Source: an uncultured Armatimonadetes bacterium
GTDB lineage: Bacteria > Armatimonadota > UBA5829 > DTJY01
Length of the DNA: 64,000 nt
Reading direction: 5' to 3'
NCBI GenBank assembly: GCA_937875395.1
Contig: CALNCU010000227.1
Location: 1,297 to 65,296, forward strand
Position 1 is the first letter of the stretch, and every line of letters begins with the position of its first letter. Both the position numbers and the translations under genes were made by a program. This document shows positions 3,312 to 62,702 of the stretch, piece after piece. Under the pieces are notes generated by a model, which did not search any database, was not told the origin of the DNA, and saw only the letters and a program-made list of their open reading frames with translations.

Positions 3312-4088
3312 TTAGACTACAAACTGCAACCGCTCTATATGCGTTGCATGTCCGCCGGGTTCTACATCTACTGCCACGGCAGAGAAGATGGAGGGACCGT
3401 CCGCCACCTCAAATCTGCTGGGCATATGGTTTAGAAACTTGTTTATAATCAGTTCCTTGCGAACCCCTATCACGGAATCTCTGGGGCCGGTCATGCCTGC
3501 ATCCGTAATATATGCCGTTCCGTTTGGAAGGATTCTTTCATCTGCGGTTTGCACGTGCGTGTGCGTGCCTATAACCGCAGATACCCTGCCGTCCATATAC
3601 CAGGCGAAGGCCACTTTCTCTGATGTGGCCTCGCCGTGGAAATCTACTATTATTACCTTTGTCTGAAGAGAGAGCAGCTTCAGGGCATCATCCGCAGATT
3701 TAAACGGATTGTCCAGGCTGTCCATAAAGACTCTTCCACAAAGATTGATTACGCCAACAGCCTGGCCGCCCTTAGTGGTATAGACCGCCCAGCCTCTGCC
3801 GGGAACGTCGCTTGGGTAGTTTGCCGGACGTACTATGGATTGTTCCTGGTCTATGTAGGTGTGCGAGTCTTTTTTTGACCAAGCATGGTTCCCAAGCGTT
3901 ATTACGTTTACCCCGGAGGCGAATATTGAGCTTGCCGTATCTTTGGTTATCCCAACTCCGCCTGCGGCGTTCTCTGCATTTGCAACTACAAAGTCCGGCA
4001 GGTACTCTTCACAAATCCTGGGGAGCATCTGCGCTACTGCGCATCTCCCCGGCTCTCCCACTATATCGCCGATGAATAGAATTTTCAA
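3312..4088 (-). CDS. ymdB: YmdB-family metallophosphoesterase (2',3'-cyclic-nucleotide phosphodiesterase)
   Basis: KILFIGDIVGEPG...GNHAW metallophosphoesterase motifs. Immediately downstream of rny as in Bacillus. Likely TTG start at 4088 (GGAAAGGTG RBS); the ATG at 4109 has no RBS. Confidence 0.8.
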   Translation of the reverse strand: MKILFIGDIVGEPGRCAVAQMLPRICEEYLPDFVVANAENAAGGVGITKDTASSIFASGVNVITLGNHAWSKKDSHTYIDQEQSIVRPANYPSDVPGRGWAVYTTKGGQAVGVINLCGRVFMDSLDNPFKSADDALKLLSLQTKVIIVDFHGEATSEKVAFAWYMDGRVSAVIGTHTHVQTADERILPNGTAYITDAGMTGPRDSVIGVRKELIINKFLNHMPSRFEVADGPSIFSAVAVDVEPGGHATHIERLQFVV

Positions 4089-12453: not shown

Positions 12454-12517
12454 GAAAATCTACTCCTGTATTAGGATGCCGGTACCCCGCTTTGCTTGTC
12501 GAAGCATCGGCCTGGTA

Positions 12518-19737: not shown

Positions 19738-20076
19738 ATGGCAACAGATGTAAAATCAAAGAAGGACGTCGAAGAGAAAAAGGAGCCGGGCTGGAAGGAT
19801 CTCCCCATAGGTGGGCTGATAGAGAAGCCGGGCACGTCTGAGGCATACAAGACCGGTGACTGGCGCACCCAGCGCCCGGTATGGGATTCTGAAAAGTGTA
19901 TAAACTGCCTTATCTGCTGGATATACTGCCCGGACAGCGCAGTTATAGTGGAAGACGGCAAGGTAAAGGGTATAGATCTTGACCACTGCAAAGGTTGCGG
20001 CATCTGCGCACAGGAGTGCCCGCCCAAGTGCAAGGCATATACTATGGTGAACGAGTCTGAGTTCCGCGGCAAGTAA
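19738..20076 (+). CDS. 2x[4Fe-4S] ferredoxin, pyruvate/2-ketoacid:ferredoxin oxidoreductase delta-subunit (PorD)-like, orphan
   Basis: Two cluster motifs, [12 protein letters not shown] and [12 protein letters not shown]. 112 aa with a PorD-like N-terminal extension. No porA/B/G nearby. Confidence 0.7.
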
Positions 20077-20128
20077 ACCGCATATATATTAGTACTCTGT
20101 AAACCTGGATTTGCAAGTTCAAACAAGG

Positions 20129-20169
20129 CTTCGGCAGCGACGTGCTTTGCACTCTGCGACCGAAGTATC
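20129..20169. repeat. REP-like imperfect palindromic element, copy A (subtype 1)
   Basis: cttcggcagcgacgtgctttgcactctgcgaccgaagtatc: outer stem CTTCGG/CCGAAG, inner stem GTGC/GCAC. Related copies at five other positions. Confidence 0.6.
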
Positions 20170-20196
20170 GCCCCGGGGGATTTTTACCGTCCTGGG

Positions 20197-20238
20197 CTTC
20201 GGCAGCGGTGTGCCAAGGCACTCTTCGGCCGAAATATC
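20197..20238. repeat. REP-like element, copy B (subtype 1, diverged 3' arm)
   Basis: cttcggcagcggtgtgccaaggcactcttcggccgaaatatc. First 11 nt identical to copy A; inner stem GTGCC/GGCAC. Confidence 0.55.
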
Positions 20239-20323
20239 ATCAACCATAGTTAAATTGGTGAAGCACTAGATTAGAGAAGCCATCCGTTTCTGTAACAACG
20301 GGTGGCTTTTTGTTTGCCGGCTT

Positions 20324-22645
20324 TTATGACTTTGCCAATTTTTGCTCGCCCTGTGTTCCCTCGTCACGTTTAACAACAAGAAGGGCTATGTCATCCTGTA
20401 TCCTGCCGCCGCAATACCCGCAAACGGCCGAATGCACCACCTGCGCAATCTTCTCCGGTGGATGGATGCGCGCTCTGCTCACCACTTCTGCCAGGCGTTC
20501 CGTCTCAAACGGGCGGCGGTTTCTTCTGGCTTCAATTACGCCGTCCGTATAGCAGATGAGTACGTCGCCGTCATGCAGCGTGCACTCGGCGCTTGGATAT
20601 TCCTTATCCATAAAGATGCCCAGCGGCGGGGCAGGGCCGGCATCGGAGAGCCACCTTATGCTGCCATCTGCATTTGCAACCAGGCCTGGCGGATGACCGG
20701 CATTTGCATATACCAGCCGCCCGGTATCCGGGTCCAGAATGCCAAAGAACATTGTAACAAACCCCAGGTCGCTGCCTATATCTACAAGGGCGTTGTTGGT
20801 TCTTTTAAGGATTACGGATGGGTCTGAATCCTCGTAGGAATAGGCTCTTAAGGTGTATTTGCCCATGGCCGTAAAGACCGCTGCTTCCAACCCCTTCCCG
20901 GAGACATCTGCCGTCACCAGCCCTATCCGTCCGTCCGGCAGGTTTATAATGTCATAAAAATCTCCGCCCAGGTCTGATACCTCAAGCGCTGCAAAGTATG
21001 CGCTGGCCAGACTGAACTTTCCCACGCTCTCCGGTACGGAAGGCAGCATATTCTTTTGAAGTGACTGCCCAATATTCATCCACTTTTCAAAGGCCTCTGC
21101 ATTCTCTATGGCCGCTGCCGCCAGAGATGCCATCTCCGTTGCAGATTCCACGGTGTCCTTGTCCAGATGAAGATTGTTTCCGGGGTTATCCAGGATAGCC
21201 AGGCCTACCGGGTGCTTGCGATATATAAGCGGCAACGCGGCGAATCTTTCCAGGCCAAGGTGCAGGGCAAGTGTTCTTGGCATATGATGGCTGTCGGCAT
21301 TAAAGGTTAATATGGCCGGAGCTTTTGCTTTTTCAAACTGCAGAAGGTAGGATGAATCTATCACCAAGCTGTCAAACTGCTGGCTATCGGCAAGCCCGTA
21401 TCCGGCGGCAAGAACCAGCTTGCATCCCCTTTTAAGCATAATGGCACACCGTTTTACACCGCATTCAGATGCCAGAGCCTTTGCAATTATCTTAAGACGT
21501 TTGTTAAGATCGGCATGCACTATTATCCCCTGCGCCACGGAGTAGAGAGATGAGGCTCTCTCTGCCAGGCGGCGCTCGGCGGACAGGGTTATATGCAAAG
21601 CATCTGTCCTCTCTTTTAAATCCTGGGCCATCTGGTTAAAACTTTGCGCAAGTACCTCCAGCTCGTCACCGGTTTTTACATCTGCACGGGCATCAAAATT
21701 GCCGTTTCCAAACTCTCTGGCAGTCCTTGAAAGACGCCGGACGGGCCGGGCAAGCTTGGCCCCTATGCGGCTTGCAAGGGCTGCGGTAATGCTTGCAGTG
21801 AGGAATACCATGCCAAGCAGTATGCAGATATACCGCCGGTGTATTGAGAACAGGTGCCTCTCCGGAAGCAGGGTCAGCGCCGCCCATTCTGTATTAGGCA
21901 CGGGTATTAAGGAGCCTATTGCAGTAGTGCCGTCCGGCAGCCTGAATTTGCTGCCGCGGGAGGCATGGTGCAAGTCGGAGACGCGGCGAATGCTACCCCA
22001 CGGCGCAGATTTTGCAATTCCCCTTGAAAGGATAGCTTTACCTTCACCATCTATAAACGCAAGGCCGGGTATACCCTCGCTTAGATTCCGGGAGAGCATG
22101 GTATCTATAATATCTTCGCAGGAAACGCCTACAACCACGCCGCAAAGCCTCCCCTTACCGTCCTTTACTGCCGAAGCCACGCAAAAGATGTTTCCGCCGG
22201 GCATGCCGGAATCAACTCCGCAGCCGACTGCTATATCTTCTCCGTCAAATATCCTTTTTGCAAGGTCGTGCATGGTGGATTTCAGCGTTGTTAAGTACGG
22301 GGCATCGGCGGCGACTACTCGTCCGTGTGCATCCAATACCATGCAATGGATAAGCTTTTCGCTCTGTATCACTGCGCCGGATAGATACGCCTTCCCCAGC
22401 TCTCCGCGGCCTGCACCTTTCTGCAGGAGTGTTGCTCCCAGCGCGCGCTCAAGTTCCGCCATATCCATAAGATATGATGAGCACGCGGCGGCTGCTTCCA
22501 AAGCCTTGTTCTGCTGGACTGCAAGCATTCTGTGGCGGTGTTCTTTGTATCTGGAAATTTGAGAGACGATGCTGCATGTGAGCGAAGGTAGTACCACAAT
22601 TATGCATGCCAGCAGCAGCTTGTAACGTAGACTTGAAGTATGCAT
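20324..22645 (-). CDS. sensor-domain/HAMP/GAF-containing PP2C-family serine phosphatase (RsbU/SpoIIE-like)
   Basis: N-terminal TM-flanked extracytoplasmic sensor region, HAMP (RPVRRLSRTAREF...), central GAF-like region, C-terminal SpoIIE/PP2C (SGDFYDII...GLVTADVSGKG...YTDGVIEA). ATG at 22645. Confidence 0.75.
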   Translation of the reverse strand: MHTSSLRYKLLLACIIVVLPSLTCSIVSQISRYKEHRHRMLAVQQNKALEAAAACSSYLMDMAELERALGATLLQKGAGRGELGKAYLSGAVIQSEKLIHCMVLDAHGRVVAADAPYLTTLKSTMHDLAKRIFDGEDIAVGCGVDSGMPGGNIFCVASAVKDGKGRLCGVVVGVSCEDIIDTMLSRNLSEGIPGLAFIDGEGKAILSRGIAKSAPWGSIRRVSDLHHASRGSKFRLPDGTTAIGSLIPVPNTEWAALTLLPERHLFSIHRRYICILLGMVFLTASITAALASRIGAKLARPVRRLSRTAREFGNGNFDARADVKTGDELEVLAQSFNQMAQDLKERTDALHITLSAERRLAERASSLYSVAQGIIVHADLNKRLKIIAKALASECGVKRCAIMLKRGCKLVLAAGYGLADSQQFDSLVIDSSYLLQFEKAKAPAILTFNADSHHMPRTLALHLGLERFAALPLIYRKHPVGLAILDNPGNNLHLDKDTVESATEMASLAAAAIENAEAFEKWMNIGQSLQKNMLPSVPESVGKFSLASAYFAALEVSDLGGDFYDIINLPDGRIGLVTADVSGKGLEAAVFTAMGKYTLRAYSYEDSDPSVILKRTNNALVDIGSDLGFVTMFFGILDPDTGRLVYANAGHPPGLVANADGSIRWLSDAGPAPPLGIFMDKEYPSAECTLHDGDVLICYTDGVIEARRNRRPFETERLAEVVSRARIHPPEKIAQVVHSAVCGYCGGRIQDDIALLVVKRDEGTQGEQKLAKS

Positions 22646-24210: not shown

Positions 24211-24445
24211 ACCTTTAACCACCTCTGGATAATTATAATCTGGTACTCCGCCAAAAAAGTTATGATGGTTAAGGCCATGGTGCGCCTTGCGGCTTATGTG
24301 CCGAAGCATCAACCCTGTAATTTGGCAAAGTATTAACGGAACCGGTAAGCAATGCCGCCTGCCGGCCCTCAATGGTTAAATGTTCAACAATTAAGCGTAT
24401 ATGTCCTTCTTGGATAAAAAATATAGTAAATTATGCCGCCTGTTG

Positions 24446-43704: not shown

Positions 43705-43775
43705 GGGTTAGCGTCCAGGCCTGTCAGCGGCGCCTCTGGCTTGCGGGCCGAAGCATCAATTAATATGGACTGATA

Positions 43776-44672
43776 TTAAAGGGAAGGGTCTCTTAAGGCT
43801 GCCTTTACCCCGCTCAGGTAAGAGTGCTGAAACACAATCTCTCTGCAGGAGGGCGATTCCGCCGCCTTCCTGCGGCATCTTTTAATAAGACTGCCGTTTT
43901 CTGCTATAACAGAGTGCAGAGCCATTGTTACCGGGTTTACCCCCATAAGCAGCTTTATCATGGGATCCTTATGCTTGCGGTAGAATCGCACTGTAGAGAC
44001 CCCCGACATATGCATCTTTTGGCACTTCTCTTCAAAGGGTACGGGGTGCCAGTGATAGTTTAGGGCGTGTATGTTATACGCTATGCGCATGCCGGATTTC
44101 TTTAACCTGTAGCCAAGTTCCAAGTCTTCATGCCCGTATCCGGTAAAATTCTCATCAAACATGCCCACCCTTACAAGGGCCTCTTTGGGCGCAGATGCGT
44201 TTCCGGTAAGAAAGAAGAGCCAGGAGAGCTCCTTTGTGCGTTCGGAATGAAGGCACCGGCTCTCCTCCGGGTATGCCATTACATGTTTGTATTCCTTCAG
44301 CGTATCTACCTGCACCTCCCGGCCTACAACGGCGGTGTTTCTTTTTGCCGAATGTATTTTTGCATGTTCTTCCAGAAGGTGCGGGTCTGCAAGTATATCT
44401 GCATCTGTGAAGAGGATTATATCCCCTTTAGCCTCGCAGATTCCGCGGTTCCTGGCCCCGGAGCGCCCCCGGTTCTCCCCGGTAATCATGCGCAGGTTGG
44501 GGATGTTCATGGCCTCAACCATCTCCCTGGTGCCGTCCGTAGAGCCGGAATCTGAAAGGAGAATTTCGTACGCATCCTTGGGGTAGGTCTGGTTAAGGAT
44601 GGTGGGGAGCACGTGCTCCAGCGTCTCTCTTCTGTTATATGTAGGCATGACTATGCTTATGCTTAATGTCAA
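43776..44672 (-). CDS. family 2 glycosyltransferase
   Basis: ISIVMPTYNRRETL...DSGSTDGT...FTDAD(DxD). TTG start at 44672 with GGAGG RBS. Confidence 0.8.
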   Translation of the reverse strand: MTLSISIVMPTYNRRETLEHVLPTILNQTYPKDAYEILLSDSGSTDGTREMVEAMNIPNLRMITGENRGRSGARNRGICEAKGDIILFTDADILADPHLLEEHAKIHSAKRNTAVVGREVQVDTLKEYKHVMAYPEESRCLHSERTKELSWLFFLTGNASAPKEALVRVGMFDENFTGYGHEDLELGYRLKKSGMRIAYNIHALNYHWHPVPFEEKCQKMHMSGVSTVRFYRKHKDPMIKLLMGVNPVTMALHSVIAENGSLIKRCRRKAAESPSCREIVFQHSYLSGVKAALRDPSL

Positions 44673-49193: not shown

Positions 49194-50087
49194 TTATGAA
49201 GCGCGAAGGCTCGTCCGCACGGAATCAAAGTACTCAAAGCTTACAAGCAGCCGTGTGCAGAGGAGCGGTAAGCCGTGCAGAGGCTTGTCCCCGGCCTTCT
49301 TTACTACCTTTGTATAGAACGGTTTTCCAATGCGCAGTATGTCGTTCCATACAAAGCGGGCAAAGAATATGCCGGTTGACATGCGGGTTCTAAGGAATGG
49401 GCGCTTTCTAAGGTATATGACGGCACTTCTGCCGCTTGATTGCGCCTGCCTGCACAGCCGGGGCAGGTCCGTGCCCTTCCACCGGGTCTTATAGTGGTAG
49501 ACTATGGCTTTTGGGATGAACTTTTTAACAAGCCCCAGGTCTTTAAGCCTGTGTCCCAGTTCCAGGTCCTCCCAGCCGTATTCCGTAAAGTCTTCATCAA
49601 AGAGCCCCGCTTCAAGCAGGAACCTGCGCCGCACGGAGACGTTGCTGGTCCAGAAGAAGGATGTAGAGATATCTGCTATCTTGAACTTGGGGATAAGTTC
49701 CTTATCAAGATTGTCTATGTGGTTCACCCAGCCGTTTACCACGCTCCGCTGATCTGCCTGGTGTGCGGCCCAATGTTCTTTTAGCAGGTTTGCATCTGCA
49801 AAGGTATCATCGTCTATGAATAGGACTACTTCGCCCTCTGCGTTTCTTATCCCAAGGTTGCGGGCTTTGGAAAGTCCGGCGTTCTTCTCTTGCCGCAGGC
49901 ACTTTACCTGGCACTCATGCGCCAGTTCTTTTACCATATCGCTTGTGCCGTCCGTGCTTCCGTCATCTACAAGAACAAGTTCGTAGTCCTCAGGCGGAAA
50001 ATCAACCTTAAAAAGGGCTTCCAGGCACCGTTTAAGCAGGGCCTTCCGGTTGTAGCTGCAGATTTGAATGCTTATTTTTATTGACAT
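49194..50087 (-). CDS. family 2 glycosyltransferase
   Basis: ISIQICSYNRKALL...VDDGSTDGT...FIDDDT. Start ATG at 50087 (GGAG RBS), 17 nt after the msbA stop. The ORF-track N-extension would overlap msbA by 100 nt and was rejected. Confidence 0.8.
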   Translation of the reverse strand: MSIKISIQICSYNRKALLKRCLEALFKVDFPPEDYELVLVDDGSTDGTSDMVKELAHECQVKCLRQEKNAGLSKARNLGIRNAEGEVVLFIDDDTFADANLLKEHWAAHQADQRSVVNGWVNHIDNLDKELIPKFKIADISTSFFWTSNVSVRRRFLLEAGLFDEDFTEYGWEDLELGHRLKDLGLVKKFIPKAIVYHYKTRWKGTDLPRLCRQAQSSGRSAVIYLRKRPFLRTRMSTGIFFARFVWNDILRIGKPFYTKVVKKAGDKPLHGLPLLCTRLLVSFEYFDSVRTSLRAS

Positions 50088-53141: not shown

Positions 53142-53227
53142 CTTGATGCTCCCGTTTTGCCCCGCAGTTCTAACTGTGGGAATACACTCACTACTAGTGG
53201 CATGTAAACTTGAATTTGTCCCGGTAC

Positions 53228-53266
53228 CTTCGGCAGTGGCGCCTTCGGCTCTGCGACCGAAGTATC
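53228..53266. repeat. REP-like element, copy C (subtype 2)
   Basis: cttcggcagtggcgccttcggctctgcgaccgaagtatc, between the two GT19 paralogs. 2 mismatches to reverse-complemented copy F. Confidence 0.6.
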
Positions 53267-53333
53267 ACCCTCCGTAATTAATTTATCAAGCCACTATTGT
53301 GTTAATAAAAGATTATTGCCACAAATTTAAATT

Positions 53334-54563: not shown

Positions 54564-55472
54564 TTAACGGGTTATGCCAAGCCCCTTCCTTAAACCCTCT
54601 GCGTGTGCATGTATAAGATAGAACTTTTTAAGCATGGGAGGCCAGGCGGGCAGCCTGCCGCCGGATGAGCTTATGTACTCTTCATTAAGGTAACGGCGGA
54701 CCCAGCCCATTCTTTCAAATAGTCTATCATACTTGAGGTACCGGAGTCTAACCATCCTCTTTGCCATAGCGGATGGATGCTTGCAGAAGAACTTTCCGGC
54801 ATACTCCGCCCGCTCTTTTCTAAATGCAGCCTGGCTTTGCAGCGAGTACTTTCCAACTTTGCAGTGGAGGACGTATGCCCGCCTGTTTTTTATGCGTTTC
54901 AGGCCGGATTCCATCAGGCGCGTGCCAAGTTCCACATCCTCCCATGCCCATACAAACTCTTCATCAAAGCCGCCTGCGCTCTCAAGGCTTTTCCTTGGGC
55001 ATGATGCGTTTGCGGTTATAAAATACACTCCTCCAAAATCCAGGAATGCCATGGTTTTAATATCCCAGCGCAAGAACGGAGGGGCCTGTATATCTTCCTT
55101 GCGGGTCAGGTTTATTATTGGGCCGTCCATAATAATGCCGGGGTTGGTTTTGTGGGTTTCAACATGTTCCCGTATATACCAGGGCGGGGCAAAGGCATCG
55201 CTGTCTATAAATATTACAATCTCTCCCGCGGCCTCTGTAATTGCCTTGTTCCGTGCTATGCTCGGCCCCAGGGTTTTGGTGTTTGCAATATAGGCAAGGC
55301 GGCAGGGAGGGTTTAGATTGCGGATCATCTCTGCCGTGCCGTCCGTTGAGCAATCATCCACAATCACTATTTCGTACTTGTCTTTGGGATAGTCCTGTTC
55401 AAAAAGATGCTCAAGGCATTTTTTAAGAAGGGCCTCTCTGTTATATGTGGCGATGACTACAGTTGCATCCAT
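54564..55472 (-). CDS. family 2 glycosyltransferase
   Basis: ATVVIATYNREALL...VDDCSTDGT...FIDSDA. ATG at 55472 with AAAGGAG RBS. The ORF-track N-extension was rejected. Confidence 0.75.
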   Translation of the reverse strand: MDATVVIATYNREALLKKCLEHLFEQDYPKDKYEIVIVDDCSTDGTAEMIRNLNPPCRLAYIANTKTLGPSIARNKAITEAAGEIVIFIDSDAFAPPWYIREHVETHKTNPGIIMDGPIINLTRKEDIQAPPFLRWDIKTMAFLDFGGVYFITANASCPRKSLESAGGFDEEFVWAWEDVELGTRLMESGLKRIKNRRAYVLHCKVGKYSLQSQAAFRKERAEYAGKFFCKHPSAMAKRMVRLRYLKYDRLFERMGWVRRYLNEEYISSSGGRLPAWPPMLKKFYLIHAHAEGLRKGLGITR

Positions 55473-62399: not shown

Positions 62400-62445
62400 A
62401 ATTATAGTCCTGGCAGCACCCCGCCAAATTAATTTGCGGGTGGCG

Positions 62446-62478
62446 CTTCGGCTGCAAGTGTGAAGTACTGCTCCGAAG
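62446..62478. repeat. REP-like element, degenerate copy D
   Basis: cttcggctgcaagtgtgaagtactgctccgaag. Shares the CTTCGG...CCGAAG arms and a gaagta core. Confidence 0.4.
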
Positions 62479-62509
62479 CCTGGTGGCATGCAAATTTAAA
62501 TATGTCCTG

Positions 62510-62551
62510 GATACTTCAGTCGCAGAGTGCCTTGGCACGCCGCTGCCGAAG
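62510..62551. repeat. REP-like element, copy E (subtype 1, inverted orientation)
   Basis: Reverse complement is cttcggcagcggcgtgccaaggcactctgcgactgaagtatc, about 90% identical to copies A and B. Confidence 0.6.
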
Positions 62552-62573
62552 CAAGGGGCATCACCCCCAAGGC

Positions 62574-62611
62574 GATACTTCGGTCGCAGAGCCGGAGGCG
62601 CCGCTGCCGAA
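62574..62611. repeat. REP-like element, copy F (subtype 2, inverted orientation)
   Basis: Reverse complement is cttcggcagcggcgcctccggctctgcgaccgaagtatc, near-identical to copy C. Confidence 0.6.
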
Positions 62612-62702
62612 GCCCTGTTTGAACTTGCAAATCTACTAGTGATGGAGTAGTTATTTGATTACACAGCAATCTTATGACTATTGCAGGTTCTTTGTCAATA
62701 AT

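Follow-up and report, generated by a model that had tools for sequence, protein, structure and literature searches.

The DNA considered here is a stretch of 64,000 nucleotides (nt) from an uncultured Armatimonadetes bacterium (assembly GCA_937875395.1, contig CALNCU010000227.1, positions 1,297 to 65,296; hereafter the window), in which a family of imperfect palindromes of about 40 nt occupies short spacers at gene ends. An earlier note, made from the letters of this DNA alone, described six copies at three intergenic loci and read them as elements of the repetitive extragenic palindrome (REP) or bacterial interspersed mosaic element (BIME) type. The first locus lies at the junction of convergent Fer4 and SpoIIE/RsbU genes, the second between two genes labelled as tandem GT19 genes and the third between genes labelled DHS-like and NAGPA-like. 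Pfam backs the labels Fer4, SpoIIE/RsbU, LpxB (GT19) and NAGPA, while the second GT19 gene and the DHS-like gene have no Pfam match at 1e-4.

The window was searched with a covariance model derived from 102 distinct copies, with the filters off, and was found to hold five strong REP copies (A, B, C, E and F; 53-66 bits, all with E <= 1.6e-11) and one degenerate copy. The pattern CTTCGGCAGYG-N10-30-GRCCGAARTATC matches the window four times against 0.00 expected from 100 dinucleotide-preserving shuffles, copy E differing from it by one base in the 3' arm. The coordinates and sequences of the six copies described earlier are right, and five of them are strong; the remaining one, hairpin D, has nothing but the basal stem in common with them and reaches 9.5 bits. 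The earlier description needs a further correction: the repeat exceeds the hairpin and also takes in linkers and conserved flanking modules (U1-U4 to the left, R1 and R4 to the right). The features of the window are as follows.

20090-20127, plus strand: U1 left accessory module TAGTACTCTGTAAACCTGGATTTGCAAGTTCAAACAAG, an end of a composite resembling a terminal inverted repeat (TIR); inverted match to 62599-62633; core family of 36 copies.
20127-20170, plus strand: REP copy A, apical GTGC-TTT-GCAC; 65.4 bits, E 1.1e-14; supported by pattern match and fold.
20171-20194, plus strand: inter-REP linker, variant LNK2 CCCCGGGGGATTTTTACCGTCCTG; member of the linker family, LNK2 having 10 copies.
20195-20239, plus strand: REP copy B, apical GTGCC-AA-GGCAC; 53.1 bits, E 1.6e-11; pattern match; 3' inner arm diverged, CTTCGG replacing CTGCGA.
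20240-20269, plus strand: R1 right accessory module TCAACCATAGTTAAATTGGTGAAGCACTAG, inverted counterpart of the U2 type; R1 core with 23 copies.
20274-20316, plus strand: intrinsic terminator outside the repeat family, 15-bp stem and U-run; -21.3 kcal/mol, z = -3.85.
53193-53225, plus strand: U4 left accessory module CTAGTGGCATGTAAACTTGAATTTGTCCCGGT, from module comparison.
53226-53267, plus strand: REP copy C, apical GCC-TTC-GGC; 57.7 bits, E 1e-12.
53268-53296, plus strand: R1-like right module CCCTCCGTAATTAATTTATCAAGCCACTA; the same module follows the REP in locus L036.
62441-62480, minus strand: hairpin D, membership not demonstrated; 9.5 bits, E 2.9; fold -22.9 kcal/mol.
62483-62508, minus strand: R4 right accessory module GACATATTTAAATTTGCATGCCAC, which corresponds in inverted form to U4 and to the 5' part of U1, from module comparison.
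62509-62553, minus strand: REP copy E, apical GTGCC-AA-GGCAC; 61.8 bits, E 9.1e-14.
62554-62572, minus strand: conserved 22-23-nt linker GCCTTGGGGGTGATGCCCCTTG, itself a small hairpin; LNK family of 64 copies.
62573-62614, minus strand: REP copy F, apical GCC-TCC-GGC; 66.4 bits, E 5.9e-15.
62615-62642, minus strand: truncated U1 module CACTAGTAGATTTGCAAGTTCAAACAGG; inverted match to the U1 of locus 1.
43718-43758, plus strand: degenerate REP with decayed 5' arm and intact 3' half GCCGAAGCATC; 21.7 bits, E 0.002.
24249-24333, plus strand: probable decayed small element, weakly supported, in which a U2 module is followed by a mini-hairpin ending CCGAAGCATC and then by an R1-like tail.
12488-12509, plus strand: mini-hairpin ending TCGAAGCATC, a possible remnant, not significant; 13.6 bits, E 0.26.

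The order of the parts is thus U1-A-linker-B-R1 at locus 1 (20090-20269), U4-C-R1-like at locus 2 (53193-53296) and U1'-F-linker-E-R4, followed by hairpin D, at locus 3 (62441-62642, minus strand). Hairpin D has the basal stem GCTTCGG/CCGAAGC of the REPs, but a different interior and no ATC tail. The copies occur in both orientations, as had been noted (A, B and C on the plus strand, E and F on the minus strand). Three shorter motifs had been suggested to be remnants; that at 43745-43760 is the 3' end of the degenerate copy 43718-43758, while 12488-12509 and 24291-24311 (the latter 11.9 bits, E 0.68) are not significant alone. The site at 24291 nonetheless sits between U2-type (core match 24249-24267) and R1-like accessory modules of the REP family. 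The R1-like module CCCTCCGTAATTAATTTATCAAGCCACTA is also found in L038, which is the window's own locus from another assembly.

Read in the direction CTTCGG...YATC, the REP unit is an imperfect hairpin of 39-42 nt. Its basal stem of 7 bp (GCTTCGG/CCGAAGY, the first G pairing with Y) is followed by a conserved 2x2 irregular zone (internal loop, CA/GA) and by an inner stem of 4 bp (GCGG/CTGC), the third pair of which is G-T in 89 of the 102 copies. A C/T mismatch separates the inner stem from a variable apical stem-loop, and the ATC tail (GAT on the other strand) is unpaired, with A41, T42 and C43 invariant in all 102 distinct copies. On one strand the tag accordingly is GAT(A/G)C, 5' of the hairpin, and on the other it is (T/C)ATC, 3' of it.

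The hairpin is maintained by covariation: standard pairs fill 91% of the cells (15 pairs, 102 copies) as compared with 36-41% when the partners are slid by 1-3 columns, and the observed covariation score was reached in none of 500 shuffles. Since the search pattern partly fixed the lower half of the hairpin, only the apical covariation constitutes an unbiased test. Apical pair 17-32 is CG in 61 copies and UA in 36, pair 18-31 is CG in 33, GC in 31 and AU in 16, and the apical stem includes a full swap from GTGC..GCAC to GCAC..GTGC. The two subtypes recognised earlier in the window, with apical GTGC..GCAC in A, B and E and GCC-TYC-GGC in C and F (2 nt apart; 93% complementary in the inverted-repeat comparison of the window), stand, and are two of at least eight apical variants in the wider family. 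Folds of the single-stranded DNA range from -8.6 to -11 kcal/mol on both strands, the CTTCGG...YATC strand folding better because of its G-T pairs.

The motif also occurs beyond the window. When metagenome contigs were scanned with the lower-stem pattern, 116 further contigs were obtained; most came from four samples, nearly all were non-redundant, and together they carry 252 pattern hits representing 151 distinct sequences. De-duplication leaves 232 copies of the family, scattered over more than 100 loci and drawn from 109 non-redundant sources, one of which is the window. The three commonest 39-42-mers are present unchanged at 16, 14 and 13 loci, respectively, whose far flanks are unrelated, and are accompanied by many variants that differ by one or two substitutions. 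Nor is the element a coding repeat, since about 83% of the copies lie outside open reading frames (ORFs; 39 of 232 within), though ORFs make up about 84% of the DNA by rough greedy ORF calling. Where a gene was called on both sides, the contexts comprise 75 tandem, 33 convergent and 4 divergent spacers; within the tandem contexts 25 copies are sense and 50 antisense to transcription, so that the REPs do not keep a fixed orientation to the mRNA. At locus 1, contigs of other assemblies break off within the REP array, as expected of a multi-copy repeat. Among the matches listed from a scan of genome contigs, about half were chance matches inside genes of unrelated phyla, and others represented a related REP family in other metagenome-assembled genomes (MAGs).

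The earlier note had proposed that the palindromes could be targets of a REP-associated tyrosine transposase (RAYT). ORFs of at least 80 amino acids (aa) in the window and the loci were searched with two HUH transposase sequences serving only as bait, and the hit was verified independently. The sole hit is an ORF of 159 aa in locus L130 (791-1270, minus strand). Its product matches Pfam Y1_Tnp (PF01797) with 26.6 bits (gathering cutoff 23) and NCBIfam REP_Tyr_transpos (NF047646) with 77.9 bits over the full-length model, as against 23 bits for the IS200 model. Its only match in PDB is 4ER8, the E. coli TnpA-REP bound to REP (E 8.7e-8, about 140 residues), where PEHVHMM (HUH) and NYIHRNP (Tyr) align with PEHMHCI and DYIYINP, respectively.

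The gene is flanked by inverted copies of the family. On one side, two antisense REPs (GATGC-TTCGG..., GATAC-TTCGG...) stop 14 nt short of the RAYT start codon, and on the other, sense REPs begin at its stop codon, the order on the gene strand being U1, two sense REPs, about 100 nt, two antisense REPs, the ORF, sense REPs and R1. This layout, seen on L130/L141, is that of a REPtron, defined as a RAYT ORF flanked by inverted REPs (PMC2817692). The related contigs, about 700 kb of sequence, yielded one RAYT locus.

Annotations of the window's proteins are found in two MAGs named 'Armatimonadota bacterium', GCA_003450055.1 (accessions HAH8...) and GCA_041668005.1 (MFA666...). The exact proteins adjoining the RAYT on L141 (MFA6665713.1, HAH87663.1 and HAH86012.1) fall in the same two accession series, and the RAYT locus therefore belongs to the window's species. 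One sample of the Joint Genome Institute (JGI) contains both the window locus and the RAYT locus; exact-protein look-ups with the Fer4 and PRA-CH genes link the two through this one shared sample only.

The partnership recurs in related genomes. The closest RAYT homologues with a named source (53-58% identity) are labelled Armatimonadota, and three homologues with 53-57% identity to the L130 protein, two of them from MAGs so labelled, could be compared together with their surroundings.

L158: RAYT homologue on a 5.4-Mb contig.
L159: RAYT homologue in GCA_054604175.1.
L160: RAYT homologue in GCA_030649165.1.

All three have a minus-strand REP just upstream of the RAYT and a plus-strand REP just downstream. 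The flanking REPs share the design CTTCGG-YAGCG ... CTCTGC-KW-CCGAAG-NATC and differ at the apex; the MAG containing L160 is also the source of one similar hairpin from the genome-contig scan. Members of the RAYT clade score 82.5, 82.2, 75.1, 74.1, 71.9 and 63.2 bits against the full NF047646 model, far above their IS200 scores. What stays constant across the RAYT-bearing genomes is the lower stem together with the irregular zone and the NATC tail, and these are the parts that co-vary with the RAYT clade. In E. coli TnpA-REP, the tag and a bulge in the stem are required for activity (PMC8266576). By this analogy, and as they are kept across the genomes, the three parts are proposed as the likely recognition determinants. 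The four-genome set of RAYTs and hairpins, with a fixed lower stem, irregular zone and tail and a drifting apex, provides a clean comparison.

Very probably, then, the palindromes are REPs belonging to an uncultivated member of the Armatimonadota and serve as cognate DNA for a single RAYT (TnpA-REP) that is encoded elsewhere in the same species and forms a REPtron with them. The earlier proposal of a RAYT target gains support from the sequences flanking the gene in this species and in the three related genomes. By analogy with E. coli TnpA-REP, the HUH/Tyr enzyme would bind the hairpin folded from one presumed strand of single-stranded DNA, would read its conserved lower stem, irregular zone and tag, and would catalyse cutting and rejoining of the DNA at a putative site beside it. 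REPs and arrays of REPs could thereby multiply over time into gene-free 3' spacers that tolerate them. In this lineage they have piled up mostly as head-to-tail doublets or triplets joined by a conserved 23-nt linker, and many of the doublets are nested in composites of about 170 bp bounded by inverted terminal modules.

Several points weigh against this interpretation. The tag differs from GTAG and neighbours lie head-to-tail instead of alternating, in both respects unlike the best-studied REP/BIME systems. The metagenome loci were picked by the exact lower-stem pattern, and conservation of the lower part in the 102-copy alignment is partly imposed by it. The fold energies of single copies beat those of shuffles modestly (z from -0.8 to -3.0 for RNA and from -0.5 to -2.0 for DNA). 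The score of the L130 RAYT, 77.9 bits, falls just under the NCBIfam cutoff of 80 bits, and no RAYT was found in the 64-kb window by the bait search of ORFs of at least 80 aa. The RAYT is unannotated in both MAGs, the accessions that flank it being consecutive in one of them and separated by a contig break in the other. Locus L048, from another metagenome, represents the RAYT locus without a cassette of about 810-890 bp (L048 about 3560-3650 as compared with L141 9621-10528). Its junction falls within two near-identical direct copies of the 42-nt REP, and reflects either deletion or excision between REPs or a collapse of the assembly; consequently, not every strain demonstrably carries the RAYT. 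With the exception of this cassette, no clean pair of filled and empty orthologous sites was found among the loci, both relatives carrying elements that differ in content or orientation, and mobility is therefore deduced from the copy pattern only. REPs break the short-read assemblies of this lineage, contigs ending inside arrays, and the RAYT locus is missing or split in public MAGs because of these repeats.

The organisation of neighbouring copies is characteristic. Copies up to 200 nt apart comprise 83 direct and about 13 truly inverted neighbours with a sharp spacing of 22-24 nt. The REP part of the earlier reading is upheld, while the regular alternation of orientation that characterises BIMEs in the strict sense is absent, direct pairs prevailing within 200 nt and the arrays being mostly head-to-tail. 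The spacer between REPs is one conserved sequence of 23 nt, GCCCCGGGGGTTGATGCCCCTTG, or its variant ...GGGGGATTTTACCGTCCTGGG. Arrays consist of one unit in 115 cases, two units in 54 and three units in 8, with two longer arrays of 4 and 7 units.

The accessory modules flanking the arrays are related to one another by inversion, R1 being the inverse of U2, and R4 that of U4 and of the 5' part of U1. Across the loci, the linker LNK has 64 copies, LNK2 10, U1 36, U3 31, R1 23 and R4 19, with none in a reversed-sequence control. A composite of the form U1-REP-linker-REP-R4, 166-175 bp long and with inverted ends (CTAGTRSYSTGTAAACTT ... AAGTTTACACGCCACTAG), was observed at a minimum of 12 loci with unrelated flanks. 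Solo REPs devoid of any module also exist, such as that at L046 2247-2292, between a stop codon and the ribosome-binding site of the next gene.

Two further kinds of repeat accompany these arrays. A non-coding module of about 190 nt that ends in U3 occurs at L088 2290-2505 and L119 about 1640-1830, and also in L056 and L140; it holds a long hairpin, GGGTAGTGCCGGAG...CTCCGGAGGCACTACCC, and is found between REP arrays at no fewer than four loci with 83-85% identity. Similarities of 430-480 nt among L056, L088, L119 and L140 were considered as a candidate transposase gene and rejected, as they represent non-coding repeat arrays. A second hairpin family carries a GTAG/GCAG tag (CCGTAG-GGGCGGG-TCTCTGT-GCCCGCCC) at 13 sites, none of them in the window, which include L033 about 1521, L058 about 1586, L139 about 485 and L141 about 13381. 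It resides on the same contigs, often adjoining REPs of the CTTCGG type, and is not the family that flanks the RAYT.

The CTTCGG-type family shows the features by which REPs and REPtrons are generally defined (PMC8266576, PMC2817692), namely a palindrome of 20-50 nt, a tag at its foot, high copy number, extragenic location and an inverted arrangement around a RAYT. It is an ordinary kind of bacterial repeat with some variant features, and it extends the REP-RAYT (REPtron) partnership to the Armatimonadota; a full-text literature search, using the older name of the phylum, found no earlier report of REPs there. It resembles the E. coli REP/BIME elements and their TnpA-REP (RAYT group 2; 4ER8; PMC8266576, PMC3479197) in the long imperfect palindrome with an irregular zone and an unpaired foot tag, the high copy number, the intergenic location, the HUH and Tyr motifs that align with 4ER8 and the enzyme gene flanked by inverted REPs. 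It differs in the tag (GATNC/NATC here, GTAG in E. coli), in the head-to-tail arrangement with a fixed 23-nt linker in place of alternating REP and inverted REP, in the host, a member of the Armatimonadota, and in the enzyme, of which about 140 residues align and which scores at or just below the NCBIfam cutoff.

With the Pseudomonas REPIN-RAYT system (PMC3116915, PMC3337134), the family shares the single RAYT locus observed, the many non-autonomous copies, the few abundant master sequences amid variants of one or two substitutions, and doublets as the commonest form after singletons. REPINs, however, are formed of two inverted REPs that fold into one long hairpin, and the REPs of group 3 are short perfect palindromes (PMC3116915, PMC3337134), whereas here the doublets are formed of direct copies and the long REP contains an irregular zone. 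The GTAG and CGTC superfamilies (Di Nocera et al. 2013, PMC3733652) likewise combine a hairpin with an unpaired end tag, prefer tandem and convergent spacers and have some structured spacers between dimer partners, and the same paper describes REPs fused to unrelated stem-loops that form TIR-like composites (TIRtrons); the GATNC/NATC tag of the CTTCGG-type REP fits neither superfamily.

The composites of the present family, with their inverted ends and variable number of internal units, have a further likeness. The pneumococcal BOX elements (boxA-boxB(n)-boxC) are intergenic, highly structured repeats in which inverted-complementary terminal modules surround a variable number of tandem internal units, and are reminiscent of these composites. 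They differ in that the internal unit here is a RAYT-type REP; BOX elements are not known to have an associated RAYT or any sequence similarity to the CTTCGG-type REPs.

Tentatively, and with rather less assurance than would make it probable, a third kind of tagged REP (GATNC/NATC) is suggested, which would have co-evolved with its own RAYT clade, mainly of Armatimonadota here, and whose enzyme would build head-to-tail arrays with a fixed structured linker inside TIR-bounded composites instead of inverted REPIN or BIME doublets. The RAYT clade straddles the edge of the current NCBIfam RAYT model (63-82.5 bits). If such a kind exists, it would offer a natural contrast for studying what determines the strand and cleavage site that a RAYT selects, and by what route arrays originate.

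The composites may also be viewed as miniature inverted-repeat transposable elements (MITEs) of about 170 bp, of the form U1-REP-linker-REP-R4 or U2-REP-R1, bounded by TIRs and moved in trans by a DDE transposase, with the hairpins as passengers and the RAYT link as secondary. The 166-175-bp composites with inverted ends amid unrelated flanks at 12 or more loci speak for such an element, as do the accessory modules, each of which forms a repeat family of its own with the copy numbers given above. However, REPs occur alone without any module, those adjoining the RAYT are bare hairpins in four genomes, and it is the hairpin design and not the modules that is conserved across genomes whose RAYTs are 53-57% identical. 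Besides, the composites showed neither a definable target-site duplication nor an autonomous partner, and no long ORF bounded by these TIRs was seen in a search that was not exhaustive. An origin as MITEs is accordingly regarded as quite improbable, though the TIR-bounded composites could also have been mobilised in a second way, through a classical transposase.

It appears just as improbable that the hairpins are mainly functional RNA, acting as stabilisers of 3' untranslated regions against exonucleases or as terminators, and are kept by selection at each locus without spreading as DNA. The location of the copies downstream of genes, between tandem and convergent ORFs, the covariation of the stem, the better folding of the G-U-bearing strand as RNA relative to its complement and the retention of one orthologous element in two species, with flanking genes about 80% identical, are all in keeping with such a role. 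On the other hand, both orientations are common, as the 25 sense and 50 antisense copies of the tandem contexts illustrate, Rfam provides no match (none at gathering score across the window and, at E <= 10 over locus 1, only a chance match to PyrR with E 7.2), and identical copies at up to 16 unrelated loci together with the flanking of a RAYT are signatures of amplification at the DNA level. The REPs also do not have the form of intrinsic terminators, being followed by ATC and the linker and not by a T-run. The suggestion that they act as bidirectional terminators is not needed at locus 1, where the array is followed by a separate intrinsic terminator (20274-20316). Lying directly after the composite, where the Fer4 and SpoIIE genes converge, this terminator has an A-rich stretch ahead of its stem, and a scan with consensus terminators missed it. 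A secondary, co-opted RNA role of the REPs may exist beside their proposed spread by the RAYT.

An array of the CRISPR type or another direct-repeat array with spacers of 22-24 nt would account for the mostly direct neighbours and their narrow spacing, but it can be dismissed almost outright because the linkers are conserved, being one sequence (GCCCCGGGGGTTGATGCCCCTTG) and not unique spacers, the arrays are mostly of 1-3 units (115, 54 and 8), the copies are scattered over more than 100 loci, and no cas genes were noticed beside the arrays, no systematic search for them having been made.

Comparison of the REP-bearing sites between contigs yielded further observations. The orthologous spacers L054 640-1070 and L112 7830-8130, with flanks 84-90% identical, hold one sense REP and two antisense copies, respectively; at this site, the orientation and content of the REPs turn over in situ. 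At L046 3440-3640 and L082 2085-2285, a U2-REP-R1 element occupies an orthologous site, the adjacent genes being about 80% identical and the hairpin differing by one substitution, which reflects either long persistence or homogenisation. A strain indel of 1.4 kb (L144 about 4925 as compared with L141 12170-13593) removes the 3' end of a zinc-dependent alcohol dehydrogenase gene and a gene of the short-chain dehydrogenase/reductase family; two REPs lie inside the indel and not at its ends. Two other candidates were rejected. Apparent insertions in L023 relative to the window proved to be runs of N in a scaffold. L152 (JGI 3300061531), considered as an empty site, joins window position 19743 to 20748 in inverted orientation, away from the repeats; the beginning of the Fer4 gene is linked there with internal sequence of the SpoIIE gene, the REP locus being bypassed, and the contig is probably a chimera or an inversion.

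A contig of 1,088 bp labelled as part of a Synergistaceae MAG (L010, JALHFZ010000232.1) consists largely of CTTCGG-type REPs and other hairpin repeats; since the same REP family is on it, it is probably an Armatimonadota fragment that was mis-binned. Within the window, a direct repeat of 53 nt is present in three copies of 68-74% identity about 5.4 kb apart (44518-44570, 49933-49985 and 55324-55376), and looks like a conserved motif of paralogous genes.

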